DNA from: Escherichia coli
GTDB taxonomy: Bacteria > Pseudomonadota > Gammaproteobacteria > Enterobacterales > Enterobacteriaceae
DNA: 64,000 bases
Assembly: GCF_013315695.1 (NCBI RefSeq)
Contig: NZ_CP054353.1
Strand: one strand, 5' to 3'
The notes under the pieces are model-generated. The model searched no databases and was not told the DNA's origin. It worked only from the letters and a program-made list of their open reading frames with translations. Below, piece after piece: positions 25,906-56,739 of the stretch; within the stretch, counting starts at the first letter, position 1; each line of letters begins with the position of its first letter. The translations under genes and the position numbers were made by a program.

Positions 25906-28713
25906 GTTTCCACTGGTCAGGCTACCCCGCAGCAGGTCTGCTTTGCGGCGGGCGCGTTCAGTGGTTTCACTGATTCTCTGTGCGTGCTCTGCGTCACGGA
26001 TGGCGTGCAGCATGTCAGAAAGCACGGTAACAGGGGTTTTCATGGTGTTCTGGTCCTGCTGAAGTGTGGATGCCAGGCGTGCGGCGGCTTCGGGGTCTGA
26101 TGCCCCCAGCTGTTCCAGATAGCTGGCGACCGGGTTATGGCGGATCTCCGTGCTGCTTACGCCGTGATTACGGCTCAGGCGCTGCCAGAGCTGCGTGATT
26201 CGGCTGTCCGGGCGGGTATCCGGTTTGCGTACAATTTCAAATCCCTGCGGTGCAATGATGCTGCCGTCAACGTACAGACTGCCGCCCCGTAACAGGTGCT
26301 GCATCTGCTGTTCACCAATATGCAGGCCGAGAGATTCAGCAGACTCCCGCCATTCTTTTGCGAGTAACTCGTGGTTATCAGGCAAAGGCTGTGGCTGTTT
26401 GCGGCTCTGTGTCCAGCTCTGCATTTCATAACTGCTGTTTTTGGCCTGTTTGTCACGCAGCGAACGCATCAGCGCCCGGCGTTCGTGCCGTTTCAGTGAG
26501 CGCATCCATTCATTCACTTCAATTTCAATGCCGTCAGGAAGCTGCGGCCACTGTGCTGGCCGTTCTTCCGGCTGTTCTGTCCCGTTGTTGTCCGTTTCCT
26601 GTACACGGGGACAGTTATTGCCACGAGTCCAAGGGGCGGCAGGGCCGCCCTGAAGGTCAAAACCATTTTCGCGGGCGCTGTCTTCCGCTTCCGGTTTGCG
26701 TCTTACCAGCTTCCAGTTATCCGGATGCGTGCATACGCGGGAAGACTCCCCAATGAGCGGCGACCAGATCCCGTAAATCTGTACGCTCTGTTCACCGTAA
26801 TCGTTCAGCTCATCTGCGAGGTCGTAGGCGGTGCGAATCAGGTAGTCTTTGCGTGGAACAAGTACGCCACCCTGTTTCTCAATGTAGGTGGCAAAACATC
26901 CGGCATCAGCGGCAGCGAGTACCGCGTCCATTGCGTCATCCTTCAGCCGTTGCGGGCCTTCCGGGTTGCGTGCCATCTGGCTGGCAAGGCGGCGCAGTTC
27001 ACGCCACACCTGACGGGAGGGGATACCAAAGAACTGGAACTGGCGGACCCGGTGAAGGCGCGCCCAGCCGATGGCGCGTTCCACGCTCTCGGCCATTGAT
27101 TTTCCGGTTTCGTGGTCAACGCGTGGCTTGCCCGTTTTCGGGTCGATGCCATCCACGGCGCGGCTGTCCAGGTTCTTTCCGATGTAGGTGGCGATGTAGC
27201 TGGTTGGTGTGCCTTTTGAGCCGTCTACGTACTCCGCCTTAAAACGCGGAGTTATGTCATCGCCCAGCTCGTGGCGGTCTTCCTGAATGGCAATATCGCA
27301 GACGTGGGACACGATGGTTTCAATCTCGTCCTGATGTGCAAAGACCATCATATGCCAGTGCACAGTGCCGTCATGGTGAGGCTCCACCGTGCGGATGCCA
27401 TACCAGCGCAGACCGTCGCGGTTCAGTTTTTTGCGGACCGCCGCAAAAAACGTGTTAACCAGGTAATCGCTGGAGTCGCGCATGGTGGCCCCGTTCCATT
27501 TGGGATTCGGATGACCGTTCTCCGTTGTTGCGTGGTATTTTGACGGGCAGGTGACAGTCAGAAACACCGCTCTGTCGCCACGGGCTTCGGCCAGAAGTTC
27601 CAGTCCCTTCATGGTGGCCATCATTTCTGCCTTACGGTGAACCGGGTTACTTACTCCCGCGTAATACACTGTCTCGAGATCAATCGTGAACCCGTCTTCG
27701 TTTTCCAGCATGAAACTTTTCAGGAAATCGCGTGTTTTCTCGCGCTGTGCGCGAAACTCGCTTAACGCGTCCTGGCTCAGATAGGGTGATGTTTTTCTGG
27801 AAACCAGACAGGCGGCGCGGAGTTGTTCTTCTCTCCACTCGCAACGTAACAGCCACAGTTTGCGTTTCCACCATTCCGCACAGGTCAGGCGAAGGATTGC
27901 GCCCGGCAGCAGCTCCGTGTCCGGTTCGTTCCTCCGGTCTTTGTCTGTTGTCAGTGCGTCATAATGTGGAGGCATGGCGTGCAGGTGTAACGCCATGCGG
28001 GCCAGCATCTGATACGCCTTCAGCGTTACATCCATGGTCAGTTCGCCATCAGTCGCACCAAAGCCATCGCAGAGTTTTTCGAAGGTGCTGCTGAACATCG
28101 CCGCCGTCATGGTGGCCAGCGTCTGTATCTGGTGTTTGTTGAGCTGCGGCAGGTAAAGCAAATCGTCCAGGCGTTCGCGTCCGGCAAGGGAGCGATAACC
28201 CGGTGTCAGCCAGCGGTGATCGGTGCGGTCCAGGCGTTCGAATATTTTGCGCAGGGTTCCGCGCGCGTAGCGTTCAGCCTGCCAGCTCTTTTTGCCTTTC
28301 TGGCGATCGGCTTCCTGTTTTTTGCGCAGGAAAGAGAGGTGGCGGCTCAGAGGTTCACGCAGATAAACGGGAAGCACCTTCAGTGTGGCAAAAGCACGGG
28401 CCACCGGGTCTTGTTCTGTTGCCTGACGCTTGCTGATGATGCTTTGTGCCAGCTTTTCACGCTGTCCGGCTTCCTCAAGGGATGCCATGAGTTTTTTACC
28501 CACGGTGGATTGTGCGAAAAAGGCTTCCTCCTTCGCTTCCTGTTCTTCCAGAGCCTTTTTGTCTGCCTCAAGGTAGTAACGGATGGCGCGTTGTAGGTCG
28601 GTTTCAGTTTCCTGCCTGTGCTCCGTAAATCTGGCCGGATCAATGGCTGGCCGTGGTTCATTCCAGCTCCATGCAAACTCACTCATGGCTGGTATCCCGT
28701 CACGCGCTGCCAC
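25840..28713 (-). CDS. A: Rolling-circle replication initiator A
   Basis: Contains HUH-like VHWHMMVF and a YIATYIGKN Tyr-containing motif; position as P2 gene A; true start may be the ATG at 28686. Confidence 0.85.
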   Translation of the reverse strand: MAARDGIPAMSEFAWSWNEPRPAIDPARFTEHRQETETDLQRAIRYYLEADKKALEEQEAKEEAFFAQSTVGKKLMASLEEAGQREKLAQSIISKRQATEQDPVARAFATLKVLPVYLREPLSRHLSFLRKKQEADRQKGKKSWQAERYARGTLRKIFERLDRTDHRWLTPGYRSLAGRERLDDLLYLPQLNKHQIQTLATMTAAMFSSTFEKLCDGFGATDGELTMDVTLKAYQMLARMALHLHAMPPHYDALTTDKDRRNEPDTELLPGAILRLTCAEWWKRKLWLLRCEWREEQLRAACLVSRKTSPYLSQDALSEFRAQREKTRDFLKSFMLENEDGFTIDLETVYYAGVSNPVHRKAEMMATMKGLELLAEARGDRAVFLTVTCPSKYHATTENGHPNPKWNGATMRDSSDYLVNTFFAAVRKKLNRDGLRWYGIRTVEPHHDGTVHWHMMVFAHQDEIETIVSHVCDIAIQEDRHELGDDITPRFKAEYVDGSKGTPTSYIATYIGKNLDSRAVDGIDPKTGKPRVDHETGKSMAESVERAIGWARLHRVRQFQFFGIPSRQVWRELRRLASQMARNPEGPQRLKDDAMDAVLAAADAGCFATYIEKQGGVLVPRKDYLIRTAYDLADELNDYGEQSVQIYGIWSPLIGESSRVCTHPDNWKLVRRKPEAEDSARENGFDLQGGPAAPWTRGNNCPRVQETDNNGTEQPEERPAQWPQLPDGIEIEVNEWMRSLKRHERRALMRSLRDKQAKNSSYEMQSWTQSRKQPQPLPDNHELLAKEWRESAESLGLHIGEQQMQHLLRGGSLYVDGSIIAPQGFEIVRKPDTRPDSRITQLWQRLSRNHGVSSTEIRHNPVASYLEQLGASDPEAAARLASTLQQDQNTMKTPVTVLSDMLHAIRDAEHAQRISETTERARRKADLLRGSLTSGNKKQTETGFTNPVNEQKTCRDI

Positions 28714-39976: not shown

Positions 39977-41023
39977 TCAGAAGCGGGTATCTACCGCAGA
40001 GGCGAGTTTTTCGACCAGGCGTTCGGTATCTTCCCAGCCCAGACACGGGTCGGTAATGGATTGACCGTAAGTGAGCGGCTGACCGCCGACGATTTTTTGC
40101 GTTCCTTCGCGCAGGAAACTTTCCGCCATAATTCCAGCAATCGCCGTAGAGCCATTGCGGATTTGCTGACAAATATCCTCACAAACTTCTAACTGGCGAC
40201 GGTGCTGCTTCTGGCAGTTACCGTGGCTGAAATCCACCACCAGATGTTCAGGTAAATCAAACTCGTGCAGCGTATCGCAGGCTGCGGCGATATCATCGGC
40301 ATGATAATTCGGTTTTTTGCCGCCACGCATAATAATGTGGCCATACGGGTTGCCGCTGGTCTGATAGATGGTCATCTGACCATTTTTGTCTGGCGAGAGG
40401 AACATATGGCTGGCGCGGGCTGCGCGGATAGCATCCACAGCAATCCGCGTGTTGCCATCGGTACCATTTTTAAAACCTACCGGACAGGAGAGTGCCGAAG
40501 CCATTTCACGGTGGATCTGACTTTCGGTAGTACGTGCGCCAATCGCGCCCCAACTGATTAAATCAGCAATAAACTGACCGGTCACCATATCGAGGAACTC
40601 AGTCGCGGTAGGGACGCCCAGCTCATTTACCTGTAAAAGTAATTTGCGCGCCAGCTCCAGACCGTGATTTACCCGATAGCTACCGTTTAAATCTGGATCG
40701 GAGATTAGTCCTTTCCAGCCGACAACAGTTCGTGGTTTTTCAAAATAGGTGCGCATTACGATTTCCAGCCGTGACTGGTACTGGTTGCGCAGCGACTGCA
40801 GACGGGTGGCGTACTCCATTGCAGCGGTGAGATCGTGGATCGAGCAGGGGCCAATAATGACCAACAGTCGCTTATCTTCACCATTGAGTATTTTTTCAAT
40901 TCTGCGGCGGGAGTCGGTGACATGGGTGGCGACGCCAGTCGTTACGGGATACCGTAGCGCGAGTTCGGCGGGCGTTACCAGGCTCTCAATACGCGCAGTA
41001 CGGAGTTCGTCAGTTCTGTTCAT
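39977..41023 (-). CDS. aroH: DAHP synthase, Trp-sensitive
   Basis: 348-aa ORF MNRTDELRTARIESLVTPAEL..., K-12 gene order. Confidence 0.95.
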   Translation of the reverse strand: MNRTDELRTARIESLVTPAELALRYPVTTGVATHVTDSRRRIEKILNGEDKRLLVIIGPCSIHDLTAAMEYATRLQSLRNQYQSRLEIVMRTYFEKPRTVVGWKGLISDPDLNGSYRVNHGLELARKLLLQVNELGVPTATEFLDMVTGQFIADLISWGAIGARTTESQIHREMASALSCPVGFKNGTDGNTRIAVDAIRAARASHMFLSPDKNGQMTIYQTSGNPYGHIIMRGGKKPNYHADDIAAACDTLHEFDLPEHLVVDFSHGNCQKQHRRQLEVCEDICQQIRNGSTAIAGIMAESFLREGTQKIVGGQPLTYGQSITDPCLGWEDTERLVEKLASAVDTRF

Positions 41024-41179
41024 TACAAGTCTCAGAAATTTGTTGCTTCTACGGCAGGACTACCGGGAAGTGATGCGCATCACGATAAACCAATCGCAGC
41101 TGATTTCAAGTGCGAGGTGTGTCACACCTCGCCGGGTGGTTAGCATGATAACAAAAAAGCAAGCCAATGCACTAGTTTT

Positions 41180-42013
41180 CTAGTACATTCGACGGCTAAG
41201 GCCCATGATATCGAGGATCTTGGTGGCAATCTCTTCTACCGAATAATTGGTACTGTTAATCCACGGGATCTGATTTTTACGGTACAACGCTTCCACTTCC
41301 GCGACTTCCATCCTGCACTGACGAAGCGAGGCATAGCGACTGTTCTCCCGACGTTCCTCGCGAATCGCCGCCAGACGTTCCGGGTCGATAGTCAGGCCGA
41401 ACAATTTGTGCTGAAGCGGTTTGAGCGACGCGGGTAGCACCAGATTATCCATATCGTCGGCAATAAAGGGGTAGTTTGCCGCGCGGATACCAAATTGCAT
41501 TGCCAGATACAGACTGGTGGGGGTTTTACCACAGCGAGAAACACCGAGCAGGATCACCTGAGCCTGGTCCAGATTGCGCAACGAAATGCCGTCGTCATGG
41601 GCAAGGGTGTAATCAATCGCCGCAATACGCGCATCATATTTATTGAGGTTATTAGGGTTCAGGCCATGGGTACGATGAGCAATCGGCGTGGGATCCAGTT
41701 TCATCTCTTGTTGTAGCGGGGCAACCAGCGCCTGAACGATATCCTGGCAAAAGCCCTCACTTTGCAAGATGATGGCGCGAATCTCCGGCAACACGATGGA
41801 GTAGAAGACCAGCGGGCGCACACCTGTCTGGTGATAAATTGCGTCAATCTGATCCTTCACTGCCCGTGCACGGCTCTCATTTTCGACAAACGGCAGCGTA
41901 ATGCTGCTGATAGTGACGGGAAATTGTGACATTACTGCGTGTCCTAATACCTCCGCAGTTATTGCCGTACCATCAGAAATATAAAAAACGTGGCGATCAA
42001 CAGCATTATCCAT
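41180..42013 (-). CDS. ppsR: PEP synthase regulatory protein
   Basis: 277-aa ORF divergent from ppsA, P-loop GVSRCGKT. Confidence 0.9.
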
Positions 42014-42344
42014 TTTGTTCTTCCCGTGATGCAGACATAATTCTATGAAAGCATAAATTAAAAACGCACAGAAGCGTAGAACGTTATGTCTGGTTTATAA
42101 AATGAAACTTAAATTTTATTTTTTATGAAAACAGCATTTCATTTTTATGGTTTCGTTTATACCGATGGTTTATGTGGAAATTGTCGAAGAGAGCAGATTT
42201 GCGCAACGCTGGGATCAGTCTTAAAAAGTAAAAAATATATTTGCTTGAACGATTCACCGTTTTTTTCATCCGGTTAAATATGCAAAGATAAATGCGCAGA
42301 AATGTGTTTCTCAAACCGTTCATTTATCACAAAAGGATTGTTCG

Positions 42345-44723
42345 ATGTCCAACAATGGCTCGTCACCGCTGGTGCTTTGGTATAACCAACTCGGCATGAA
42401 TGATGTAGACAGGGTTGGGGGCAAAAATGCCTCCCTGGGTGAAATGATTACTAACCTTTCCGGAATGGGTGTTTCCGTTCCGAATGGTTTCGCCACAACC
42501 GCCGACGCGTTTAACCAGTTTCTGGACCAAAGCGGCGTAAACCAGCGCATTTATGAACTGCTGGATAAAACGGATATTGACGATGTTACCCAGCTTGCGA
42601 AAGCGGGCGCGCAAATCCGCCAGTGGATTATCGACACTCCCTTCCAGCCTGAGCTGGAAAACGCCATCCGCGAAGCCTATGCACAGCTTTCCGCCGATGA
42701 CGAAAACGCCTCGTTTGCGGTGCGTTCCTCCGCTACTGCAGAAGATATGCCGGACGCTTCTTTTGCCGGTCAGCAGGAAACCTTCCTCAACGTTCAGGGT
42801 TTTGACGCCGTTCTCGTGGCAGTGAAACATGTATTTGCTTCTCTGTTTAACGATCGCGCCATCTCTTATCGTGTGCACCAGGGTTACGATCACCGTGGCG
42901 TGGCGCTCTCCGCCGGTGTTCAGCGGATGGTGCGCTCCGACCTCGCATCTTCTGGCGTGATGTTCTCCATTGATACCGAATCCGGCTTTGACCAGGTGGT
43001 GTTTATCACTTCCGCATGGGGCCTTGGTGAAATGGTCGTGCAGGGTGCGGTTAACCCGGATGAGTTTTACGTGCACAAACCGACACTGGCGGCGAATCGC
43101 CCGGCTATCGTGCGCCGCACCATGGGGTCGAAAAAAATCCGCATGGTTTACGCGCCGACCCAGGAGCACGGCAAGCAGGTTAAAATCGAAGACGTACCGC
43201 AGGAACAGCGTGACATCTTCTCGCTGACCAACGAAGAAGTGCAGGAACTGGCAAAACAGGCCGTACAAATTGAGAAACACTACGGTCGCCCGATGGATAT
43301 TGAGTGGGCGAAAGATGGCCACACCGGCAAACTGTTCATTGTGCAGGCGCGTCCGGAAACCGTGCGCTCACGCGGTCAGGTCATGGAGCGTTATACGCTG
43401 CATTCACAGGGTAAGATTATCGCCGAAGGCCGTGCTATCGGTCATCGCATCGGCGCGGGTCCGGTGAAAGTCATCCATGACATCAGCGAAATGAACCGCA
43501 TCGAACCTGGTGACGTGCTGGTTACTGACATGACCGACCCGGACTGGGAACCGATCATGAAGAAAGCATCTGCCATCGTCACCAACCGTGGCGGTCGTAC
43601 CTGTCACGCGGCGATCATCGCTCGTGAACTCGGCATTCCGGCGGTAGTGGGCTGTGGTGATGCAACAGAACGGATGAAAGACGGTGAGAACGTCACTGTT
43701 TCTTGTGCCGAAGGTGATACCGGTTATGTCTATGCGGAGTTGCTGGAATTTAGCGTGAAAAGCTCCAGCGTAGAAACGATGCCGGACCTGCCGTTGAAGG
43801 TGATGATGAACGTCGGTAACCCGGATCGTGCTTTCGACTTCGCCTGCCTGCCGAACGAAGGCGTGGGCCTTGCGCGTCTGGAATTTATCATCAACCGTAT
43901 GATTGGCGTCCACCCACGCGCACTGCTTGAGTTTGACGATCAGGAACCGCAGTTGCAAAACGAAATCCGCGAGATGATGAAAGGTTTTGATTCTCCGCGT
44001 GAATTTTACGTTGGGCGTTTGACTGAAGGGATCGCGACGCTGGGTGCCGCGTTTTATCCGAAGCGCGTCATTGTCCGTCTCTCTGATTTTAAATCGAACG
44101 AATATGCCAACCTGGTCGGTGGTGAGCGTTACGAGCCAGATGAAGAGAACCCGATGCTCGGCTTCCGTGGCGCGGGCCGCTATGTTTCCGACAGCTTCCG
44201 CGACTGCTTCGCGCTGGAGTGTGAAGCAGTGAAACGTGTGCGCAACGACATGGGGCTGACCAACGTTGAGATCATGATCCCGTTCGTGCGTACCGTAGAT
44301 CAGGCGAAAGCGGTGGTTGAGGAACTGGCGCGTCAGGGGCTGAAACGTGGTGAGAACGGGCTGAAAATCATCATGATGTGTGAAATCCCGTCCAACGCCT
44401 TGCTGGCCGAGCAGTTCCTCGAATATTTCGACGGCTTCTCAATTGGCTCAAACGACATGACGCAGCTGGCGCTCGGTCTGGATCGTGACTCCGGCGTGGT
44501 ATCTGAACTGTTCGATGAGCGCAACGATGCGGTGAAAGCACTGCTGTCGATGGCGATTCGTGCCGCGAAGAAACAGGGCAAATATGTCGGGATTTGCGGT
44601 CAGGGTCCATCCGACCACGAAGACTTTGCTGCATGGTTGATGGAAGAGGGGATCGATAGCCTGTCTCTTAACCCGGACACCGTGGTGCAAACCTGGTTAA
44701 GTCTGGCTGAACTTAACAAGTAA
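42345..44723 (+). CDS. ppsA: Phosphoenolpyruvate synthase
   Basis: 792-aa ORF; PEP-utilising motifs [17 protein letters not shown]. Confidence 0.95.
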
Positions 44724-44726
44724 ATA

Positions 44727-44760
44727 AAAACCCGGCGGCGTTCAGTCGCCGGGTCCATTT
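44727..44760 (+). terminator. Terminator after ppsA
   Basis: A-run then CCCGGCGG-loop-CGCCGGG hairpin. Confidence 0.6.
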
Positions 44761-45205
44761 CTATATCCCCACCTTTTAACAACCTGCTTTGGGCAAACGC
44801 GCTCATGCAATATAAAAAGTTTCCGGACATCATCTGAATAATTGGCTGCTGTTCTTTCTGATTTTAATTTGTTTGCGATCCTCTCCACAGAATAATTCTC
44901 GATACCGTTTTTTCTCAAAGCCGAATGTGACCACACGTCAATTTCCTTAAGCATATGCGTAATTTTTTCGTCCAGAGTTCGTTGGATTGCACGAAGTCAC
45001 TGATGAGTCCCGTTTTTATACTATCTTCAACCACAGCATAAAAAGGGATATGGCCATGAAAAATTACCGCACCGTTATTCAGACATAAGCGCAGATTATG
45101 TAATTCAGAGAATTTATTCGAACTAAAACCGATTTTCTGATTTGTCTGGCTGTACAGAAAACAGGATAAATTCCCTCCGCGAGCGGTGGGAAACAGCTAC
45201 AGGGA

Positions 45206-46612
45206 TTGCATATGAGTTGCTATTTGAAAGTCCTGATTTGTGCGATTGTCGCACTCGCTATATGGTTTTTCCCCGTCCCCGACGGATTAACACCCTTAAC
45301 CTGGCACATTCTGGCCATATTTATCACCACTGTGGTGGCGTTTATTCTGCAACCGTTGCCGGTGGGCGCTATCGCGTTAATAGCCATCAGTTTTATTATG
45401 CTGACCGGTATGATGAAAACCAGCGAAGCCTTAAAAGGTTTCAGCAGCACGACGGTATGGCTTATTGTCGCCGCATTCCTGTACGCGAAAGGATTCATCA
45501 AAACGGGGTTGGGGCGGCGTATCGCCTATTTGCTGATTCGCGGATTTGGCGGCAGCTCGTTGCGTCTGGGTTATACATTGGCGCTAAGCGATATGATTAT
45601 CGCGCCCGCAACGCCATCAAACACAGCGCGAGCAGGAGGGATTTTGTTCCCGATTGTTCGCAGTGTCTCTAACAGCTTTGGATCTGAACCGGATCAAGGG
45701 CCGCGTAAAATAGGCGCTTATCTGATGCAGACGGTGTTCCATTCCAACTGCCTCTCATCCTCGATGTTTATGACGGCCAGCGCGCCAAATGCACTCATTG
45801 TATCTCTGGCGGCCAGCACTTTATTTGTCGATATCTCATGGGGGATGTGGACGCTAAGCGCACTGGTGCCGGGCATTATCGCTTTTATCACTATGCCGTT
45901 GGTCATTTACAAACTCTACCCGCCAGAGATCAAAAAGACGCCAGAAGCCAAAGCGTTGGCACAGGAAGAACTTATCAAAATGGGGCCGGTAACCCGTGAT
46001 GAGCGCGTGACGATTGGCATTTTCCTGCTTTCATTATTGGCCTGGAGTACATCGAAATGGACTGGCCTGGATGCGACGGCTGTTGCGCTTTCTGGCGTCT
46101 GTTTAATGTTGATGACCCGGATTATCACCTGGCAGGATGTGCAGTCAGAGAAGGGGGCCTGGGACATTCTGGTCTGGCTGGGAGTCATGATCTGTATGGC
46201 AGATAAGCTCAATCAGCTTGGCCTGTTCAAATGGTTTGCCGTCACAACCTCGGCGCTGTTCACCGGCATTCCGTGGGAGATAACGTTGACGGTGTTGCTG
46301 ATAGTTTACTGCTATTCCCACTATTTCTTTGCCGGAAGTACGCCGCATGTAGTGGCGATGTATGCCGCTTTTGGCAGCGTCTCGGTTGCTGCTGGCGCAC
46401 CGCCGATGATGGCGGCTCTGTCACTGGCGTTCGTCACTAACCTGATGAGCGGCATTTCGCATTATGGCAACGGACCCGCAGTGATCTATTACGGCGCTGG
46501 CTATGTCTCGCAACGAGAATGGTGGCGGCTGGGCTTTATCGTCATGTTGTTGAACATTGTCATCTGGTTCGGACTGGGGGCGGTGTGGTGGAAAATTCTT
46601 GGCCTGTGGTAA
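45206..46612 (+). CDS. Anion permease, DASS/SLC13-like (organic acid transporter candidate)
   Basis: 468-aa polytopic membrane protein with SNTARAGGI motif; not in the K-12 ppsA-fadK interval as I recall it. Confidence 0.65.
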   Translation: MHMSCYLKVLICAIVALAIWFFPVPDGLTPLTWHILAIFITTVVAFILQPLPVGAIALIAISFIMLTGMMKTSEALKGFSSTTVWLIVAAFLYAKGFIKTGLGRRIAYLLIRGFGGSSLRLGYTLALSDMIIAPATPSNTARAGGILFPIVRSVSNSFGSEPDQGPRKIGAYLMQTVFHSNCLSSSMFMTASAPNALIVSLAASTLFVDISWGMWTLSALVPGIIAFITMPLVIYKLYPPEIKKTPEAKALAQEELIKMGPVTRDERVTIGIFLLSLLAWSTSKWTGLDATAVALSGVCLMLMTRIITWQDVQSEKGAWDILVWLGVMICMADKLNQLGLFKWFAVTTSALFTGIPWEITLTVLLIVYCYSHYFFAGSTPHVVAMYAAFGSVSVAAGAPPMMAALSLAFVTNLMSGISHYGNGPAVIYYGAGYVSQREWWRLGFIVMLLNIVIWFGLGAVWWKILGLW

Positions 46613-46647
46613 GTGGCCTGCGACAAACATCAATCAAGGAATAGTGT

Positions 46648-47607
46648 ATGAACTTAAAAGATATTCAAGTGGCGATCGTCGGCAAACTAAGTGATCGCTT
46701 AATGGCTAAAGTTGAATCTACCTTCACCGCATATCGCCTGTGGGAACTGGCTGATGAAGGCGCTTTTTACACGCAAATCGCGCCGGATATTCAGGCGCTG
46801 GTGACCAGTGGTAATCCGGTAATGGGGGCTTCTCGGGCGCTAATAGAAAAATTTCCGAATCTGAAGATTATTGCCAGCAACGGTGTGGGTTATGACCCTA
46901 TTGATATCGTGGCAGCCAGGGAGCATGGCGTTATCGTCACCAACACACCTGGCGTGCTTAATGACTGTGTCGCAGACATTGGTATAGCGTTGTTACTCAA
47001 TGTTGCCCGACGTATTAACATTGCCGATCGTTATGTTCGTGACGGCCGTTGGCCAAACGAGGGGCGTTTCCCGATGGCGACGAAAGTGAGTGGCAAACGT
47101 TGCGGAATTGTCGGTCTGGGGAACATTGGTAACGCAGTAGCCCGCCGTGCAGCAGCATTTGAAATGGAAATTCACTATTTCGACCCAAAACCGCATAACA
47201 AACCTGATTGGACGGCGCATGATTCGTTGGTTTCTCTGGCGCAAGCGGTGGACTTCCTCGTTCTGACGCTGCCAGGCGGCGCGAGTACGCGCGGCGTTAT
47301 TGACAAAACGGTGCTGCAGGCTCTGGGGAAAACCGGGCATTTGATCAGTATTTCCCGGGGATCAGTGGTGAACGAAACCGATCTGATTGATGCTCTGCAA
47401 AATAACATTATTGCTGGTGCGGCACTGGACGTTTATGCCAACGAACCACATGTGCCAGAACAATTAATGTCGCTGGATAACGTTGTCCTTACGCCACATA
47501 TCGCCAGTGGTACGAGCGAAACGTTTAATGCGATGGCGGATTTGGTATTTGATAACTTACAGGCTTTCTTTAGCGGACAGCCAGTTATTACCCCTGTTAC
47601 TCAATAA
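46648..47607 (+). CDS. D-isomer-specific 2-hydroxyacid dehydrogenase
   Basis: NAD-binding GIVGLGNIGNAVARR and catalytic-region motifs typical of glyoxylate/hydroxypyruvate reductases. Confidence 0.8.
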   Translation: MNLKDIQVAIVGKLSDRLMAKVESTFTAYRLWELADEGAFYTQIAPDIQALVTSGNPVMGASRALIEKFPNLKIIASNGVGYDPIDIVAAREHGVIVTNTPGVLNDCVADIGIALLLNVARRINIADRYVRDGRWPNEGRFPMATKVSGKRCGIVGLGNIGNAVARRAAAFEMEIHYFDPKPHNKPDWTAHDSLVSLAQAVDFLVLTLPGGASTRGVIDKTVLQALGKTGHLISISRGSVVNETDLIDALQNNIIAGAALDVYANEPHVPEQLMSLDNVVLTPHIASGTSETFNAMADLVFDNLQAFFSGQPVITPVTQ

Positions 47608-47617
47608 GGCGGAAAAT

Positions 47618-48097
47618 ATGATTTATGGTGATATCGCGTATCTTAGTGAACAACAAAAGCGGACATTTCATCCTGTCATCACTCGTGTCATTGAGTATCT
47701 TTCACAACATGATCTGAATAGTCTTCCTGTGGGAGAGAAGGTTTTTATTCAGGATGACTCAATATTTTATACCGTGGTTGAACCGATGACTAAACCACTA
47801 CATGAATGTCGACCGGAAGTTCATCGTAAATATCTTGATGTCCATTTTTTAATTGCCGGAGAAGAGCGGATTTGTGTGGATTTTGATGATGGGGAAAACT
47901 CGGTTGTAGAAAGCCACCTGGGCGACCGTGATGTTATTTTTTATGCTGATGAACGTATTAATGATCGAATCATCACGCTGACACCAGGACAGTTTGTGGT
48001 GGTCTTTCCGGAAGAAGTGCATCGGGCATGCTATAAAATCGATAACGTGGAAAAAATCAAAAAAACAGTCGTGAAAATCGACATGAGTTTATTATAG
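47618..48097 (+). CDS. YhcH/YjgK/YiaL-family protein
   Basis: 159-aa ORF (start at MIYGDIAYL with AAGGCGGA RBS); C-terminal ...KKTVVKIDMSLL resembles family members. Confidence 0.65.
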   Translation: MIYGDIAYLSEQQKRTFHPVITRVIEYLSQHDLNSLPVGEKVFIQDDSIFYTVVEPMTKPLHECRPEVHRKYLDVHFLIAGEERICVDFDDGENSVVESHLGDRDVIFYADERINDRIITLTPGQFVVVFPEEVHRACYKIDNVEKIKKTVVKIDMSLL

Positions 48098-48109
48098 GCG
48101 GAGCTGGCT

Positions 48110-48853
48110 ATGACAAAAATTGCCCTGGTGACGGGGGGAAGTAAAGGCATCGGCTACGCAGCAGCAAAGGCACTCTATGACATTGGATATACAGTTATTG
48201 TTGCCGCGCGTAACGAAGAAACCTTACAGCAATGTGCACAAGGATTAGCCAAGGAACGCTTTATTCCTCTGGTTGCCGATGTCACGGATGAGTCCGCTGT
48301 CGTTGCGCTATTTGCCGAGATTAAGGCTCTTTTTGGTCGACTGGATCTCTTGTTCAATAATGCGGGCAATAATAGTCCGGCAAAAAGTATTGAAGAGGTT
48401 GAGTTTACTGAGTGGACGCGCGTGTTTAACGCCAATATTCATTCGACATTTTTGTGTTCGAAAGAGGCGATTAAAATCATGAAAGCGCAGCAGCCAATGG
48501 GAGGACGTATTATTAACAATGCGTCGATTTCTGCACTGACGCCGCGCCTCTATACTGCGCCATACACGGCGTCGAAACATGCTGTTACCGGGTTGACCAA
48601 GGCCATTTCCCTGGATTGTCGCAAATTTAATATCGCTTGCGGGCAAATTAATATCGGCAATGCGGAAACGACATTATCGAATCGGATGCGTAAGGGCGTT
48701 TATCAGGCAGATGGTGCTATTAAAGCGGAAGATATGATGAATGTTGCTGATGTTGCAGCGACCATTCAGATGATGGCTCAGTTGCCAGTAACCACGAATG
48801 TGCTGGAAATAACGATTATGGCAAATAATATGCCGTATGTCGGACGTGGTTAA
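48110..48853 (+). CDS. Short-chain dehydrogenase/reductase
   Basis: N-terminal TGGSKGIGYA Rossmann motif; YTASK catalytic motif. Confidence 0.8.
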   Translation: MTKIALVTGGSKGIGYAAAKALYDIGYTVIVAARNEETLQQCAQGLAKERFIPLVADVTDESAVVALFAEIKALFGRLDLLFNNAGNNSPAKSIEEVEFTEWTRVFNANIHSTFLCSKEAIKIMKAQQPMGGRIINNASISALTPRLYTAPYTASKHAVTGLTKAISLDCRKFNIACGQINIGNAETTLSNRMRKGVYQADGAIKAEDMMNVADVAATIQMMAQLPVTTNVLEITIMANNMPYVGRG

Positions 48854-48865
48854 TCGAGATTGAAT

Positions 48866-48897
48866 AAAGCACCTTGCGTGTAAGGTGCTTTATTATT
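48866..48897. terminator. Bidirectional hairpin terminator
   Basis: AAAGCACCTT-GCGTGTA-AGGTGCTTT flanked by A/T runs. Confidence 0.6.
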
Positions 48898-48903
48898 TAT
48901 GAC

Positions 48904-49120
48904 TTATGCCTCAACGCATGTTTGTTCCAGCCGTTGAAGAATATCTTTACGTAACAAAAATTTTTGTATTTTACCGGAGGCAGTGCGCGGTAGTTTTTCG
49001 ATTACCACGATATGTTCAGGATATTTATATTTCGCGACCCGTTTACGGCTAAAAAATGCCACTACATCTTCCAGCGATAATGAATGATGCGGTGCTTTCA
49101 GCACGACATAAGCGCATGAA
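48904..49120 (-). pseudogene. fadK: fadK 3' fragment, separated from the 5' part by IS1
   Basis: Encodes ...YVVLKAPHHSLSLEDVVAFFSRKRVAKYKYPEHIVVIEKLPRTASGKIQKF..., the acyl-CoA synthetase C-terminus. Confidence 0.85.
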
Positions 49121-49175
49121 GGTGATGCTGCCAACTTACTGATTTAGCGTATGATGGTGTTTTTGAGGTGCTCCA

Positions 49176-49451
49176 GTGGCTTCTGTTTCTATCAGCTGTC
49201 CCTCCTGTTCAGCTACTGACGGAGTGGTGCGTAACGGCAAAAGCACCGCCGGACATCAGCGCTATCTCTGCTCTCACTGCCGTAAAACATGGCAACTGCA
49301 GTTCACTTACACCGCTTCTCAACCCGGTACGCACCAGAAAATCATTGATATGGCCATGAATGGCGTTGGATGCCGGGCAACAGCCCGCATTATGGGCGTT
49401 GGCCTCAACACGATTTTACGTCACTTAAAAAACTCAGGCCGCAGTCGGTAA
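49176..49451 (+). CDS. insA: IS1 InsA
   Basis: [43 protein letters not shown]... Confidence 0.95.
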
Positions 49452-49873
49452 CCTCGCGCATACAGCCGGGCAGTGACGTCATCGTCTGCGCGGAAATGGA
49501 CGAACAGTGGGGCTATGTCGGGGCTAAATCGCGCCAGCGCTGGCTGTTTTACGCGTATGACAGGCTCCGGAAGACGGTTGTTGCGCACGTATTCGGTGAA
49601 CGCACTATGGCGACGCTGGGGCGTCTTATGAGCCTGCTGTCACCCTTTGACGTGGTGATATGGATGACGGATGGCTGGCCGCTGTATGAATCCCGCCTGA
49701 AGGGAAAGCTGCACGTAATCAGCAAGCGATATACGCAGCGAATTGAGCGGCATAACCTGAATCTGAGGCAGCACCTGGCACGGCTGGGACGGAAGTCGCT
49801 GTCGTTCTCAAAATCGGTGGAGCTGCATGACAAAGTCATCGGGCATTATCTGAACATAAAACACTATCAATAA
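49370..49873 (+). CDS. insB: IS1 InsB (normally expressed as InsAB' by frameshift)
   Basis: 167-aa ORF overlapping insA in another frame. Confidence 0.9.
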
Positions 49874-49888
49874 GTTGGAGTCATTACC

Positions 49889-51375
49889 GCGCATGAACGT
49901 TCACCTAAACGTTCATCGGGCATCGCAACCACACAGGCATCGTGAATTTTAGGATGCTGCAATAAAATATCTTCTACTTCACGGCTGCTAATATTTTCGC
50001 CGCCGCGGACAATAATATCTTTCTTGCGCCCGGTTATTTTTATATAGCCAGCCTCATCCATGCGGCAGAGATCGCCGCTGTAATACCAGCCTTCTTCATC
50101 CAGCGCACGGGCGGTTAATTCAGGTTCATCAAAATACCCCATAAACACATTGGGGCCACGCGAGGCTTCTTCACCTTCGCAACCTGGCGGTAAGGTCTTG
50201 CGTGCGTCATCGACCACTTTAATCTCTACACCTGCGGCAGCGTAACCATCGGTGTGCATAAAGCGCGACAAAGGATCATCGAGATTCACCACCGCATGCG
50301 GCGAACTTTCTGTGGAACCATAAACACTTAATAATTTAATGCCGCGCTGCTGGCATTCACGCGCCACTTTTTTGGGGATTGTGGTACCGCCGCAAAGAAA
50401 GAAACGCAGCGCTGAAAGGTCTGCGGGCTGTTTCTCTAGTAAATTCAAAAGATCATAGACAAACGGCGTTGCGCCGAGCATACAGGTGCAACGCTGCTGC
50501 TCAAGCAGCGCGAGACACGCAGCAGGAGTGAAAATATCTAACAACACGCTGCGAGCACCAATTAAAAATGGTGCTGTTACGCCATGCAGAAAGCCCGTTG
50601 CGTGACCAAGTGGCGCAGGCATCATAAAGACATCCTGCCAGGTCAGATTCAGCCGCGCGCAATAAGCCCGCTCACTGGCGAGAATATTGTTATGCGTTAG
50701 CATCACGCCCTTTGGCAGACCCTCGGTTCCGGAGGTAAACAGCACCGCGGCTAATTCATCGCCGTGGACCGTTATCGCCGTGGTCAGAGGAGTATTGTCG
50801 GCGATAATCTGACTTAATGAGAGGGAAGAGGTGGCGGGAGCCAGTTTGTCCACGCCGACAATTTGTTGTAGTTGTGGAAGCTGATTTTGCAGTGGCAGGA
50901 TTAAATCTACCGGACGCGTTTGTTTAAACAACGTCGGTGCAAAGAACATTTTTGCCTGACACTTATTGAGCACCCACACCAGTTCTGCTTCCCGCCAGGA
51001 AGGTAACAGCGGCACGGAAACCGCACCGGTTTTCAGGCAGGCAAGATAGATAACGGTAAATTCACACCAGCCTGGCAGTTGAAATGCGATGCGATCGCCT
51101 GATTCAATACCCTTCGCTAACATCCAGTTTGCCAGACAGCTCGCGGCGTGATCGAGCGCGCTATAGGTGTACGTTGCACCATGATTGTCGACCACGGCAA
51201 TTTTGTCTGGCATCGCACGAGCGGTCTGCTGCCAGTAATCGGCCAGTGAAGCATCGCCCCATAACCCTTGCTGACGATACGCCGCACGACGTTGTTCGTT
51301 AAACGTTAATGTCACTTTCATTTTGGACTCTCGAAACAGAACATCAGGCCCGAGATGCGGGCCTGTGGGATGCAT
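49889..51375 (-). pseudogene. fadK: fadK 5' part (short-chain acyl-CoA synthetase), interrupted at its 3' end by IS1
   Basis: AMP-binding motifs TSGTEGLPKG, YGSTE; reading frame runs into IS1. Confidence 0.85.
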
Positions 51376-51377
51376 GA

Positions 51378-51671
51378 TTAGCCGTAGCGAAAATCAATAC
51401 CGAAGGTGCCTGCGGGATATTGCCACTGTTCGAGAATAGTGTTACCGCACAGCACCCGACAGGTGCCGCACTCCAGACAACCGGCGGAATCGAAATGAAT
51501 GTTTCCTGCGTCATCCTGCTTATAAAGTCCGGCAGGGCAGGCTTTCATTAATTTACGGAATTCATTGATATCGGGATTTGCCGCCAAAATGATATGCGGG
51601 TGGCCCTCATCAACATGGAATTTATTGACGCCTAATTTGATGTCGACGTTAACCGTAGCGTTCTGGCTCAT
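51378..51671 (-). CDS. ydiT: Ferredoxin-like protein (FixX-like)
   Basis: 97-aa ORF with Cys cluster CLECGTCRVLC, K-12 gene order. Confidence 0.85.
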   Translation of the reverse strand: MSQNATVNVDIKLGVNKFHVDEGHPHIILAANPDINEFRKLMKACPAGLYKQDDAGNIHFDSAGCLECGTCRVLCGNTILEQWQYPAGTFGIDFRYG

Positions 51672-52957
51672 AGCGCGGTTGCTCCCTTAATGCCATCTTT
51701 CAGCAAGTTGATCAGCCCAATTTTCTTCGCGTGTCCCATGATCATTTTGCGTACCGGCTGGTTTGGTTTGCCGTCAATGGTGAACATCTCGTTCATGATG
51801 TCGGCTACCATTCGTGGGTATTGGCTAAACAGGCGCGGGTTTTCCATCAGCGCCGGGATCTTGCGGAAATGCTGCATATCGCGCATAACACAACTTTGTT
51901 CCAGCTCACGTTTGTATTGCGCAAGACTGCTGGCGGAGAAATCCGCGCGTTCTTTGGCGGCAATCACTGTTGTGGCGGCAGCCTGAGCTGATGCAATGGC
52001 TAAATCCATGCCGCGAACTGTAAAACCCAAATTCAGGCAGAAGCCTGCGGCGTCACCAACGATAATCACGCCATCGTTAACCAGCTGCGGCACCATCGCC
52101 AGACCGCCTTCCGGTACCATATGCGCGGAGTATTCAAGCAGTTTGCCGCCGCTAATCAGCGGGCGAATGGCGGGGTGTTGTTTAAAATCTTCCAGCATTT
52201 GCGGCACACTTTTTTGCGCATGGGCGATATCACCCAATCCACAAACCAGCCCCAACGATACGGAATCCTTGTTGGTATAGAGAAATCCGCCACCCATCAG
52301 GCCGTCCGAAGGGGAACCGGCAAACAGCCAGGCGGCACCTTCCTCGCCCGTAATATTAAAGCGATCGTTGATCTGTTCTGGTGTGAGGCCAATAACCTCT
52401 TTAACACCAACAGCGTAATGATGCGGATCGGAAGCGGGAACCATTCCCAGCGAGCGGCCAAGCATCGAGTTAACGCCATCAGCCAGAATCACCACATTCG
52501 CTTCAAGAACATCATCCCCGGCCTGAACGCCAGTGACCTTGTTTCCTTCACGAACCAGCGCATCGACACGAACGCCCGGGATAAACTGCGCGCCAGCCTG
52601 TTCGGCTTGTTCCATCAACCACGGGTCCAGACGATTACGCAATACGGTATAAGACGCGTGTTGCGGAACATCTGATTGCTCGCGGTGAAAATCGAGGGTA
52701 ACGGCACTCTCTTTGGTTAAGAAGGAGATTTTCTCGCGTGTGACCTTGCGTTCTACTGGCGCTGATGCTGCAAAGCCTGGAATGATTGCTTCAAGTGTGT
52801 GGGCATAAAGACGCCCGCCGGTCATGTTTTTACATCCGGCACTGTCGCCGCGTTCTATCACCAGGACATCCAGCCCGGCTCGCGCCATGACCAGTGCGGC
52901 AACGCTACCGGCAACGCCCGCACCGACCACAATGGCATCAAATTTGTCATCCGACAT
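51668..52957 (-). CDS. ydiS: FixC-like flavoprotein dehydrogenase
   Basis: N-terminal FAD motif FDAIVVGAGVAGS. Confidence 0.85.
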   Translation of the reverse strand: MSDDKFDAIVVGAGVAGSVAALVMARAGLDVLVIERGDSAGCKNMTGGRLYAHTLEAIIPGFAASAPVERKVTREKISFLTKESAVTLDFHREQSDVPQHASYTVLRNRLDPWLMEQAEQAGAQFIPGVRVDALVREGNKVTGVQAGDDVLEANVVILADGVNSMLGRSLGMVPASDPHHYAVGVKEVIGLTPEQINDRFNITGEEGAAWLFAGSPSDGLMGGGFLYTNKDSVSLGLVCGLGDIAHAQKSVPQMLEDFKQHPAIRPLISGGKLLEYSAHMVPEGGLAMVPQLVNDGVIIVGDAAGFCLNLGFTVRGMDLAIASAQAAATTVIAAKERADFSASSLAQYKRELEQSCVMRDMQHFRKIPALMENPRLFSQYPRMVADIMNEMFTIDGKPNQPVRKMIMGHAKKIGLINLLKDGIKGATAL

Positions 52958-55050: not shown

Positions 55051-55748
55051 ATGTATCAACGCTGTTTTGATAACGCCAGTGAAACGCTGTTTGTCGCCGG
55101 TAAAACGCCACGGCTTTCACGTTTCGCATTTAGCGATGATCCAAAATGGGAGTCCGGACATCACGTTCATGACAATGAAACCGAGCTGATTTACGTCAAG
55201 AAAGGGGTAGCAAGGTTTACCATCGATTCTTCGTTATATGTCGCGCATGCCGATGACATTGTGGTGATAGAACGTGGCAGGCTGCATGCGGTGGCCTCTG
55301 ACGTTAACGATCCGGCAACGACGTGTACCTGTGCGCTGTACGGCTTTCAGTTTCAGGGGGCTGAGGAAAATCAGCTACTGCAACCGCATTCTTGCCCGGT
55401 AATTGCCGCAGGGCAGGGAAAAGAAGTCATTAAAACCTTATTTAATGAGCTAAGTGTGATTTTGCCGCAAAGTAAAAATAGCCAAACATCTTCGTTATGG
55501 GACGCATTTGCCTATACGTTAGCAATTCTTTACTATGAAAACTTTAAAAATGCTTATCGTTCGGAGCAGGGATATATTAAAAAAGATGTTCTGATAAAAG
55601 ATATTCTTTTCTATCTGAATAATAACTATCGCGAAAAAATCACTTTAGAGCAGTTATCGAAAAAGTTTCGTGCCAGCGTCAGTTATATTTGCCATGAATT
55701 TACCAAAGAGTATCGCATTTCCCCTATTAACTATGTTATTCAACGGCG
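55051..55748 (+). pseudogene. ydiP: ydiP 5' part (AraC-family regulator), interrupted by IS1
   Basis: Reading frame continues into IS1; the C-terminal HTH part lies beyond the IS. Confidence 0.8.
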
Positions 55749-55803
55749 GGTGATGCTGCCAACTTACTGATTTAGTGTATGATGGTGTTTTTGAGGTGCT
55801 CCA

Positions 55804-56079
55804 GTGGCTTCTGTTTCTATCAGCTGTCCCTCCTGTTCAGCTACTGACGGGGTGGTGCGTAACGGCAAAAGCACCGCCGGACATCAGCGCTATCTCTGCT
55901 CTCACTGCCGTAAAACATGGCAACTGCAGTTCACTTACACCGCTTCTCAACCCGGTACGCACCAGAAAATCATTGATATGGCCATGAATGGCGTTGGATG
56001 CCGGGCAACAGCCCGCATTATGGGCGTTGGCCTCAACACGATTTTACGTCACTTAAAAAACTCAGGCCGCAGTCGGTAA
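55804..56079 (+). CDS. insA: IS1 InsA
   Basis: Identical protein to insA of copy 1. Confidence 0.95.
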
Positions 56080-56501
56080 CCTCGCGCATACAGCCGGGCA
56101 GTGACGTCATCGTCTGCGCGGAAATGGACGAACAGTGGGGCTATGTCGGGGCTAAATCGCGCCAGCGCTGGCTGTTTTACGCGTATGACAGGCTCCGGAA
56201 GACGGTTGTTGCGCACGTATTCGGTGAACGCACTATGGCGACGCTGGGGCGTCTTATGAGCCTGCTGTCACCCTTTGACGTGGTGATATGGATGACGGAT
56301 GGCTGGCCGCTGTATGAATCCCGCCTGAAGGGAAAGCTGCACGTAATCAGCAAGCGATATACGCAGCGAATTGAGCGGCATAACCTGAATCTGAGGCAGC
56401 ACCTGGCACGGCTGGGACGGAAGTCGCTGTCGTTCTCAAAATCGGTGGAGCTGCATGACAAAGTCATCGGGCATTATCTGAACATAAAACACTATCAATA
56501 A
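55998..56501 (+). CDS. insB: IS1 InsB
   Basis: Identical protein to insB of copy 1. Confidence 0.9.
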
Positions 56502-56516
56502 GTTGGAGTCATTACC

Positions 56517-56739
56517 TCAACGGCGTATGACGGAAGCGAAATGGTCACTCACTAATACTGAATTATCACAGACAGAGATCTCCTGGCGTGTGGGTTATGA
56601 AAATGTCGATCACTTTGCCAAACTGTTTTTGCGCCATGTCGGCTGTTCGCCCAGCGATTACCGCAGGCAATTTAAAAACTGTTTTGCGGAACAAGAAATC
56701 TTATCTGAATTTCCTCAACCGGTAAGTCTTGCCGGATAA
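56517..56739 (+). pseudogene. ydiP: ydiP 3' fragment (AraC-type HTH region)
   Basis: Frame continuing after the target duplication encodes ...TELSQTEISWRVGYENVDHFAKLFLRHVGCSPSDYRR. Confidence 0.75.

Follow-up and report, generated by a model that had tools for sequence, protein, structure and literature searches.

What do the four genes that separate ppsA from fadK in some Escherichia coli chromosomes do, and on which compound do their products act? We addressed this question in a 64-kb window of an E. coli chromosome (NZ_CP054353.1; the window is the whole stretch of DNA that was analysed, and all positions given here refer to it), where an insert of 4.1 kb between ppsA and fadK encodes a DASS-family anion permease, a D-2-hydroxyacid dehydrogenase, a protein of the DUF386 (YhcH/YjgK/YiaL) family and an SDR oxidoreductase. 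The original prediction had described these genes as a catabolic module for a hydroxy- or sugar-acid. Our results support that description, which agrees with all the evidence and can be narrowed through the homologies of the enzyme pair and of the DUF386 protein. The operon may be an accessory module for the uptake of a keto (or diketo) sugar acid and its two-step redox conversion, an interpretation to which we give about an even chance from sequence comparisons. The likely substrates would be 2-keto-D-gluconate, 2-keto-L-gulonate, 2,5-diketo-D-gluconate or 2,3-diketo-L-gulonate. Such ketoaldonates are formed when glucose is incompletely oxidised or when vitamin C is broken down.

The insert extends from ~44755/44772 to ~48896, edges that we derived by comparison with K-12 and with which the interval originally proposed (44761-48900) agrees. 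To its left lie aroH, ppsR and ppsA (39977-44723), and to its right, on the opposite strand, fadK, ydiT and ydiS (48904-52957). In K-12 MG1655 the stop codons of ppsA and fadK are only 56 bp apart and we found no match to any of the four genes, confirming their absence from K-12, which had been put forward originally. The homology with K-12 stops just past the ppsA terminator hairpin, also present in K-12, and restarts at ~48897, a few bases before the fadK stop codon. The locus comprises the following features:

44730..44754, plus strand: intrinsic-terminator hairpin of ppsA, the left boundary (10 pairs, 8 of them G-C, in a terminator scan)
44755..45211, plus strand: non-coding, AT-rich leader (~40% GC) of 457 bp, which travels with the cassette
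45212..46612, plus strand: DASS-family anion permease of 466 amino acids, of the CitT/TtdT/YbhI/plant-DiT exchanger branch
46648..47607, plus strand: D-2-hydroxyacid dehydrogenase of 319 amino acids (PF02826 and PF00389)
47618..48097, plus strand: DUF386 (YhcH/YjgK/YiaL) metalloprotein of 159 amino acids, of a rare YiaL-like subfamily; putative ring-opening anomerase
48110..48853, plus strand: classical SDR of 247 amino acids, of the Ltn3D (L-threonate / sugar-acid 3-dehydrogenase) clade
48866..48891, no strand assigned: hairpin between the SDR gene and the convergent fadK, the right boundary (13-bp stem, then ATTATTT)
48904..51375, minus strand: fadK, given as context only, split by an IS1 at 49121-49888

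All four open reading frames (ORFs) are intact and co-directional, with intergenic gaps of 35, 10 and 12 bp, and a Shine-Dalgarno-like purine run precedes every one of the four start codons. They have the architecture of one operon, located between ppsA and fadK and bounded by the hairpins at 44730-44754 and 48866-48891, just as had been proposed. The right-hand hairpin (dG -17.3 kcal/mol, z = -4.63; none of 200 shuffles folded as well) is probably a bidirectional terminator; a simple terminator scan missed it because its T-run is interrupted. The family labels first given to the four products stand as well, with profile matches of 527 bits (Na_sulph_symp), 126 bits (DUF386) and 167 bits (adh_short) and with both 2-Hacid_dh domains present. 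RefSeq annotates the identical four genes in NZ_OZ547117 and in strain IAI39, under generic names only.

The four genes are a conserved unit, hereafter referred to as the cassette. We found them in the same order, with protein lengths of 466, 318-319, 158-159 and 247-248 amino acids, in five unrelated chromosomal contexts: Escherichia (ppsA-fadK), Citrobacter (youngae/werkmanii group), Salmonella enterica (near pal-cpoB and nadA), the marine gammaproteobacterium Celerinatantimonas, and one bacterium from sequencing-run assemblies. Identities to the E. coli permease, dehydrogenase, DUF386 protein and SDR are 95%, 83%, 72% and 85% in Citrobacter, 94%, 83%, 69% and 85% in Salmonella, and 51%, 68%, 48% and 73% in Celerinatantimonas, respectively. 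A scan of genome contigs with narrow peptide patterns returned Escherichia, Citrobacter and one distant Clostridiaceae locus only. The cassette is under strong purifying selection: between the two alleles found in E. coli (described below), dN/dS is 0.009 for the permease, 0.067 for the dehydrogenase, 0.060 for the DUF386 protein and 0.089 for the SDR. From these low values and the intact state of the cassette across genera we conclude that it is functional and under selection. We did not find a regulator, kinase, aldolase or decarboxylase with the cassette in any of the five contexts.

The dehydrogenase contains both domains of the 2HADH family (PF02826, 172.9 bits; PF00389, 77.4 bits), a GLGNIG motif at position 156 and the catalytic residues R237, E266 and H284, as aligned with its best solved homologue. 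This is the 2-keto-L-gulonate reductase of Ketogulonicigenium vulgare (Kv2KGR, PDB entry 4LSW; 272.6 bits, 47% identity), which yields L-idonate (PMC6827314, PMC12994016). The 2-keto-L-gulonate reductase of Vitis (Vv2KGR, 6PEX; 245 bits) is also among the top seven PDB matches. D179 and P180 occupy the Asp175-Ile176 NAD site of Kv2KGR, and this position, read together with the published comparison of such enzymes (PMC12994016), suggests that the island dehydrogenase uses NADH. Equivalogy to GhrB or GhrA was rejected, with scores of 175.2 bits (cutoff 492) and 61.3 bits (cutoff 403), respectively.

The SDR (adh_short, 167 bits) matched only three PDB entries at E<=1e-25, namely 4DYV, 4DRY and 9X6I, all of the Ltn3D clade. 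The last one (242 bits) is the L-threonate 3-dehydrogenase Ltn3D of Paracoccus litorisediminis (PlLtn3D), reported by Watanabe et al. in JBC in February 2026 (PMC12994016), and the two proteins are 50.2% identical over 243 amino acids. The PlLtn3D residues S136, S138, R143, Y149, K153, N181, E204, M238, R33 and D54 correspond to S139, S141, R146, Y152, K156, N184, E207, M241, R34 and D57 of the island SDR and are all conserved; only R34 and M186 of PlLtn3D are changed, to N35 and L189. In PlLtn3D, alanine mutants of Arg143, Tyr149, Asn181 and Glu204 are inactive and those of Ser136 and Met238 strongly impaired; Arg143, Asn181, Glu204 and Met238 bind the carboxylate and the C2 hydroxyl, and Arg33 binds NADP (PMC12994016). 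We did not identify the SDR as IdnO, since it scored 111 bits against the gluconate 5-dehydrogenase model, whose cutoff is 279. In the Klebsiella oxytoca group, the SDR orthologue (which with that of Citrobacter koseri falls in the range of 75-82% identity) is located between ybcI-like and ybcJ-folD genes.

PlLtn3D oxidises the 3-hydroxyl of (2R,3S) C4-C6 sugar acids, with the lowest Km for D-gluconate, and its gene adjoins that of a 2HADH-family, NADPH-dependent 2-keto-D-gluconate/2-keto-L-gulonate reductase (Pl2KGR), which is ~45% identical to 4LSW (PMC12994016). The genes of the island SDR and of the 2KGR-like dehydrogenase share an operon, with only the 480-bp DUF386 gene between them. From the homologies of the two enzymes, therefore, the island holds homologues of both members of a characterised pair.

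The DUF386 protein matches PF04074 (125.6 bits) and TIGR00022 (129.8 bits), and it shares the metal tetrad E67/H69/D74/H135 without change with NanQ, YiaL and TabA; these Glu/His/Asp/His ligands are known from crystal structures of YjgK and YhcH (PMC12517248). Of the K-12 paralogues YiaL is the most similar to it (35% identity), followed by TabA (30%) and NanQ (27%). In K-12, yiaL lies directly after yiaK, which encodes the 2,3-diketo-L-gulonate reductase, and before yiaMNO, the genes of the 2,3-diketo-L-gulonate transporter. The subfamily is rare: an exhaustive HMMER search of 1.84 billion representative proteins gave two matches at E<=1e-30, both from this cassette, thus confirming as real the rarity seen in a word-index search (four matches). 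The gene of the next relative (40% identical) sits with genes for IclR, KduI, a KduD-like SDR and KdgT, and that of another, 32% identical, with genes for a TTT carboxylate transporter, a 2HADH protein and a GntR regulator. Therefore, the combination of a DUF386 protein with a keto-acid reductase and a carboxylate transporter recurs. NanQ, the sole characterised member of the family, is a metal-dependent anomerase; it acts on N-acetylneuraminate, a cyclic 2-keto sugar acid, and provides the following enzyme with the open-chain form (PMC8141875). By gene context, the island protein is a putative ring-opening anomerase as well. Its identification as NanQ itself was rejected (NF040884, 101.2 bits with a cutoff of 160; 27% identity; no nan genes nearby).

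Three independent pointers thus converge on keto sugar acids of the gluconate/gulonate/idonate series. One is the best match of the dehydrogenase, another is the resemblance of the SDR to Ltn3D, with a conserved active site and with the two enzymes paired in the same way, and the third is the likeness of the DUF386 protein to YiaL along with the recurring gene contexts of that family. For the substrate class and for every transport and catalytic step we infer the following scheme. The anion would be imported by the DASS permease, and the opening of its hemiketal ring would be sped by the YiaL-like DUF386 metalloprotein, as NanQ does with N-acetylneuraminate. The dehydrogenase, probably NADH-linked, would then turn the free keto group at C2 into a (2R)-hydroxyl by reduction, with products of the D-gluconate or L-idonate type, and the Ltn3D-type SDR, probably NADP-linked, would interconvert the (3S)-hydroxyl and the 3-oxo group of the same acid. 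Since genes for a kinase, an aldolase, a decarboxylase or a regulator are missing from the cassette, the product must use pathways of the host; it could enter the Gnt/Idn pathways, for instance, or YgbK/YgbL where these are present.

A particular form of this scheme would make the cassette a self-contained and so far undescribed reductive route from 2,3-diketo-L-gulonate to L-idonate, feeding the GntII/Idn pathway. The diketo acid, cyclic and hydrated, would be opened or dehydrated by the DUF386 protein; its (2R)-hydroxyl would come from the dehydrogenase and its (3S)-hydroxyl from the Ltn3D-type SDR working in reverse. By our own stereochemical reasoning, (2R,3S) is the C2/C3 configuration of L-idonate, which matches the stereochemistry of both homologues. 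2,3-diketo-L-gulonate is the hydrolysis product of dehydroascorbate, the oxidised form of vitamin C. We regard this route as speculative and unlikely to be the exact one; if true, DUF386/YiaL proteins would gain a general role as ring-openers for keto-acid reductases.

The permease matches PF00939 over its full length (527.5 bits with a cutoff of 27; residues 7-468 against profile positions 5-472) and TIGR00785 (448.8 bits; cutoff 198.6), and has the PSNTA motif at residues 134-138, the Ser-Asn-Thr motif with which DASS proteins bind substrate and cation at a hairpin tip. It is 38.7% identical to YbhI, 37.6% to CitT and 35.2% to TtdT of K-12, and its nearest relatives outside the cassette (55-60% identical) come from Negativicutes and other anaerobes. 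We rejected orthology to CitT, TtdT or YbhI, given the 35-39% identity, the lack of an equivalog match and the absence of the citrate lyase, tartrate dehydratase and ybhH/J partners.

Several of our observations weigh against a keto sugar acid as substrate. Among solved structures, the permease is closest to chloroplast DiT1 (437 bits), the plant 2-oxoglutarate/malate translocator, and then to LaINDY (358 bits), and the two relatives whose surroundings we inspected (57-58% identical; one from the Negativicute Sporomusa malonica) have C4-dicarboxylate gene neighbours: class-I fumarase/TtdAB-like and fumarate reductase genes in the first, and LarA, aconitase-like and oxaloacetate-decarboxylase genes in the other. 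The lineage of the permease argues for a dicarboxylate substrate, which is the main weakness of our interpretation, and to our knowledge no member of the DASS family carries a monocarboxylic aldonate. As for the dehydrogenase, hydroxyphenylpyruvate and glyoxylate/hydroxypyruvate reductases come next among its PDB matches (256-257 bits), and its clade is promiscuous, also reducing glyoxylate, hydroxypyruvate and pyruvate (PMC6827314). Orthologues of the SDR (69-82% identical) are found as stand-alone genes in Klebsiella, C. koseri and others; the Ltn3D-type SDR is a core or independent gene in some enterobacteria, and the clade is therefore not bound to one pathway.

We searched for two host routes with chimeric queries, and the comparisons are not corrected for phylogeny. 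Genes idnO-idnD of the L-idonate pathway are present in at most 105 of the 114 complete E. coli genomes that carry the island (9 of the 12 of those listed), compared with 37% of the other genomes, an association that, being uncorrected for phylogeny, is possibly confounded. K-12-like ygbK-ygbL (3-oxo-tetronate kinase and decarboxylase, in the variable mutS-rpoS region) occur in at most 11 of the 114, compared with ~86% of the others, and were not found in IAI39, CE10 and SMS-3-5 at megablast sensitivity. This scarcity implies that a continuation of the Paracoccus type is not generally available. The idnO-idnD result counts for our interpretation, with the possible confounding as a point against it, and the rarity of ygbK-ygbL counts against it; the overall pattern fits products such as L-idonate or D-gluconate.

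If the lineage of the permease is taken at face value, the cassette would be a module for a hydroxy- or keto-dicarboxylate. The DASS protein would act as an anion:anion exchanger for a dicarboxylate of the malate, tartrate, 2-oxoglutarate or aldarate type. Its keto forms would be converted into hydroxy forms and back by the two dehydrogenases, as between oxaloglycolate or diketosuccinate and tartrate, or between a keto-aldarate and an aldarate. We consider this rather unlikely, even though it accounts well for the transporter: among solved structures, 2-oxoglutarate/malate translocators and the dicarboxylate exchanger LaINDY match it best, the K-12 paralogues are citrate:succinate and tartrate:succinate antiporters, the source names of relatives include "2-oxoglutarate translocator" and "malate transporter YflS", and the two inspected relatives at 57-58% identity are flanked by C4-dicarboxylate enzyme genes. 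A C6 keto-aldarate substrate would reconcile the transporter with the enzymes; we know of no keto-aldarate pathway of that kind. The dicarboxylate tartronate does bind tightly in the active site of PlLtn3D (Ki 55 uM), but the enzyme is inactive on L-tartrate (PMC12994016), and the closest characterised homologues of the dehydrogenase work on hexonates. Moreover, C4 dicarboxylates cannot cyclise, which would leave the conserved DUF386 protein without an obvious role, and the informative contexts of DUF386 genes all concern C6 or C9 keto sugar acids. The exchanger lineage also leads to a different idea, namely that the cassette balances redox through precursor/product antiport: an oxidised acid would be taken in, reduced with NAD(P)H and expelled by the same exchanger, serving as an electron sink in the anaerobic gut and not as a source of carbon. 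All five contexts indeed pair a transporter of the obligate-exchanger branch (CitT, TtdT, LaINDY) with two oxidoreductases, and the cassette has no kinase, aldolase, dehydratase or decarboxylase leading toward central metabolism. However, the cofactor preferences appear to differ, with Asp179 at the NAD site of the dehydrogenase and Arg34 at the NADP site of the SDR, the characterised homologue of the latter was assayed mainly in the oxidative direction (PMC12994016), and the gluconate and idonate pathways of the host exist and would consume the product. We therefore see little probability in this idea.

An equally small probability goes to the exact route of Paracoccus, in which a 2-ketogluconate would be reduced to D-gluconate or L-idonate, oxidised at C3 by the SDR, and passed on to YgbK (OtnK) and YgbL (OtnC) to give a pentulose 5-phosphate. 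Here the enzyme pair is homologous to Pl2KGR and PlLtn3D, with which this reaction sequence was reconstituted in vitro (PMC12994016); K-12 encodes both ygbK and ygbL, and the genomes closest to the window, including NZ_OZ547117, have the island together with ygbKL. Yet ygbKL are rare among island genomes and common in island-free ones, as given above, and we rejected the completion of the pathway by host YgbK/YgbL as a general explanation. The kinase and decarboxylase for 3-oxo acids of the Ltn3D -> 3OtnK -> 3OtnC pathway do not accompany the cassette in any of its five contexts. Finally, the insert could be what is left of an ancestral locus, decaying or silent and without a function today. 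It is missing from 97.5% of E. coli, it has no regulator, and copies interrupted by insertion sequences (IS) occur in a few genomes (CS5L, 88COLEC and DSM 103246). Such a remnant, though, would hardly have its four ORFs intact in the window, in IAI39, in O157:H16 Santai and in the Citrobacter, Salmonella and Celerinatantimonas cassettes examined, nor would it have stayed together in several genera, with proteins 48-95% identical and with dN/dS of 0.009-0.089; we deem this explanation very improbable. Uptake and two-step redox conversion of a keto sugar acid thus remains the interpretation that we prefer.

The presence or absence of the cassette across E. coli genomes, which had been suggested as a check, shows a patchy distribution. 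The insert was detected in 114 of 5,426 complete genomes (~2%), including IAI39, CE10 and SMS-3-5, always in single copy and on the chromosome, and the empty junction of the K-12 type in 5,288. It exists as two alleles, one at least 99% identical to the window (80 genomes, among them IAI39, CE10 and SMS-3-5) and another ~96% identical (34 genomes, such as O157:H16 Santai and many poultry isolates). Escherichia sp. MOD1-EC7003 and E. whittamii share the order ppsA-insert-fadK. The window matches E. whittamii at 95.6-96.6% identity over the insert and at 91-94% in the flanking genes, and the two E. coli alleles diverge by 2.5-5% across the four genes compared with 0.4-2% in aroH, ppsR, ppsA and 5' fadK. 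The higher identity of the insert to E. whittamii, together with the deeper divergence of the alleles, indicates that the locus is old in the genus Escherichia. The identity pattern suggests an old polymorphism or recombination between lineages, and the history of the insert would involve either repeated loss or homologous recombination between lineages. No integrase ORF, tRNA or flanking direct repeats were found at the insert or its boundaries. A plasmid origin was rejected: among 72,556 plasmids there was no copy, only weak SDR fragments, and the E. coli copies are all chromosomal. The Salmonella copy adjoins a transposase fragment.

The leader is homologous to the region upstream of the permease gene in Citrobacter and Salmonella, despite the different flanking genes, and presumably holds a promoter and an operator. 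Three blocks are conserved among the enterobacterial copies: GCATATGCG (44951-44959), TGCACGAAGTCAC (44988-45000) and TTTTTATACT (45013-45022). A further block, GCTGTACAGAAAACAGGAT (45149-45167), ~45 bp upstream of the permease start, contains the 8-bp palindrome CTGTACAG; it is kept in the Escherichia, Citrobacter and Salmonella cassettes and not in the two distant ones, and may serve as the operator of a regulator whose gene lies elsewhere. A search for a riboswitch or another known RNA, in the 457-bp leader and elsewhere, gave no Rfam match at E<=1. The leader also contains a 70-amino-acid ORF on the minus strand (44742-44954) and, on the plus strand, a 12-codon mini-ORF, MAMKNYRTVIQT (45054-45092), with a purine run ahead of it; neither is conserved in Citrobacter. 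We considered a degraded divergent regulator in this region and rejected it, since Pfam gave no match to the minus-strand ORFs (44742-44954 and a neighbouring frame), even with the threshold set at E<=10.

Beyond the insert, the last dozen or so codons of fadK (48904-48945) diverge strongly, ending in ...KDILQRLEQTCVEA and a stop codon in island genomes and in ...KDIMRRLTQDVCEEIE and a stop codon in K-12, whereas the remainder of the gene is ~98% identical between island-bearing genomes and K-12; the divergent tract therefore reaches slightly past the insert. The IS1 that splits fadK (49121-49888) has typical terminal inverted repeats and a 9-bp target duplication, GCGCATGAA, and its insertion point appears as a 9-bp overlap in the collinearity with E. 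whittamii. The gene is unbroken in IAI39, in AF3 and in NZ_OZ547117, a genome that is otherwise almost identical. Among the complete genomes of the collection, none matched the fadK::IS1 junctions of the window at 100% identity, and 13 genomes have an IS1 in or beside fadK. A second IS1 (~55051-56600, with an InsB-like ORF at 55998-56501) appears to break the AraC-type regulator gene ydiP; in the RefSeq annotation of NZ_OZ547117 the ydiP region has the same order, with a cupin fragment, an IS1 and a helix-turn-helix (HTH) fragment. Positions 23450-28713 of the window contain P2-family prophage or plasmid-like genes, encoding a 957-amino-acid replication protein (Phage_GPA, 430 bits), a ParM-type segregation ATPase and a DUF3800 protein; NZ_OZ547117 lacks them at the matching position and has espL1-thrS there instead.

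In a full-text literature search we found no paper on this gene combination. The component families, close characterised relatives of two of the components and the logic of small sugar-acid operons were already known. What is new is that a DASS permease of the exchanger type, a dehydrogenase resembling 2KGR, a rare DUF386 protein resembling YiaL and an SDR resembling Ltn3D come together in a fixed set of four genes, that this set is found as a portable unit across several gammaproteobacteria, and that its distribution in Escherichia is patchy and ancient. If our interpretation is true, a minority of E. coli would be able to use an oxidised sugar acid which strains of the K-12 type can neither take up nor convert, and the cassette would be a compact determinant of niche adaptation; the strains concerned include the extraintestinal pathogens IAI39 and CE10 and many poultry isolates, and some Citrobacter and Salmonella carry it too. 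It would also place the YiaL branch of DUF386 in a functional context for the first time and extend the 2KGR/Ltn3D enzyme pair to enterobacteria, and, were the substrate monocarboxylic, the permease would be unusual among DASS proteins. With four genes, no dedicated regulator and no counterpart in K-12, the cassette is easily tested by transfer into K-12.

Among known systems, the Paracoccus pair (GL300_RS07940/RS07945, Pl2KGR and PlLtn3D) resembles the island in having a 2-keto-aldonate reductase of the 2HADH family beside an SDR of the Ltn3D clade. It differs in being embedded in a large "metabolic funnel" cluster for C4/C5/C6 sugar acids, with kinases, decarboxylases, dehydratases and regulators, and no DUF386 gene is mentioned in its description (PMC12994016), whereas the island is a minimal cassette of four genes, the other two of which encode a DASS permease and a DUF386 protein. 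The cofactor sites differ too: Pl2KGR has the NADPH-type Ser-Arg where the island dehydrogenase has Asp-Pro, NADH-type as in Kv2KGR, and PlLtn3D has Arg-Arg where the island SDR has Arg-Asn. GhrB/TkrA (YiaE) shares with the dehydrogenase the superfamily and the predicted type of reaction, from 2-keto-aldonate to (2R)-aldonate (PMC6827314), but the latter, scoring far under the GhrB equivalog cutoff, is not a GhrB orthologue. IdnD and IdnO define the L-idonate pathway, whose genes co-occur with the island in most island genomes; unlike IdnO, which acts at C5, the homologue of the island SDR works at C3.

The permease shares with E. coli CitT, TtdT and YbhI and with plant DiT1 the full-length DASS profile, the PSNTA hairpin motif and the exchanger branch. 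In contrast to CitT and TtdT, its partners are redox enzymes of the sugar-acid type, and not citrate lyase or tartrate dehydratase. The yiaK-yiaL-yiaMNO operon likewise combines a carboxylate transporter, a keto-acid reductase and an adjacent DUF386 gene, and YiaL and the island protein have in common the motif PEVHRxYxD. That operon, however, uses a TRAP transporter instead of a DASS permease and continues with a kinase, a decarboxylase and epimerases, which the island does not have. Unlike the island dehydrogenase, YiaK presumably belongs to another fold family (Ldh_2) and gives a (2S) product, 3-keto-L-gulonate. NanQ (YhcH), finally, has the same DUF386 fold and Glu/His/Asp/His metal site and offers the mechanistic precedent for ring opening (PMC8141875), with the difference that its partner enzyme is an aldolase and that of the island protein a dehydrogenase.

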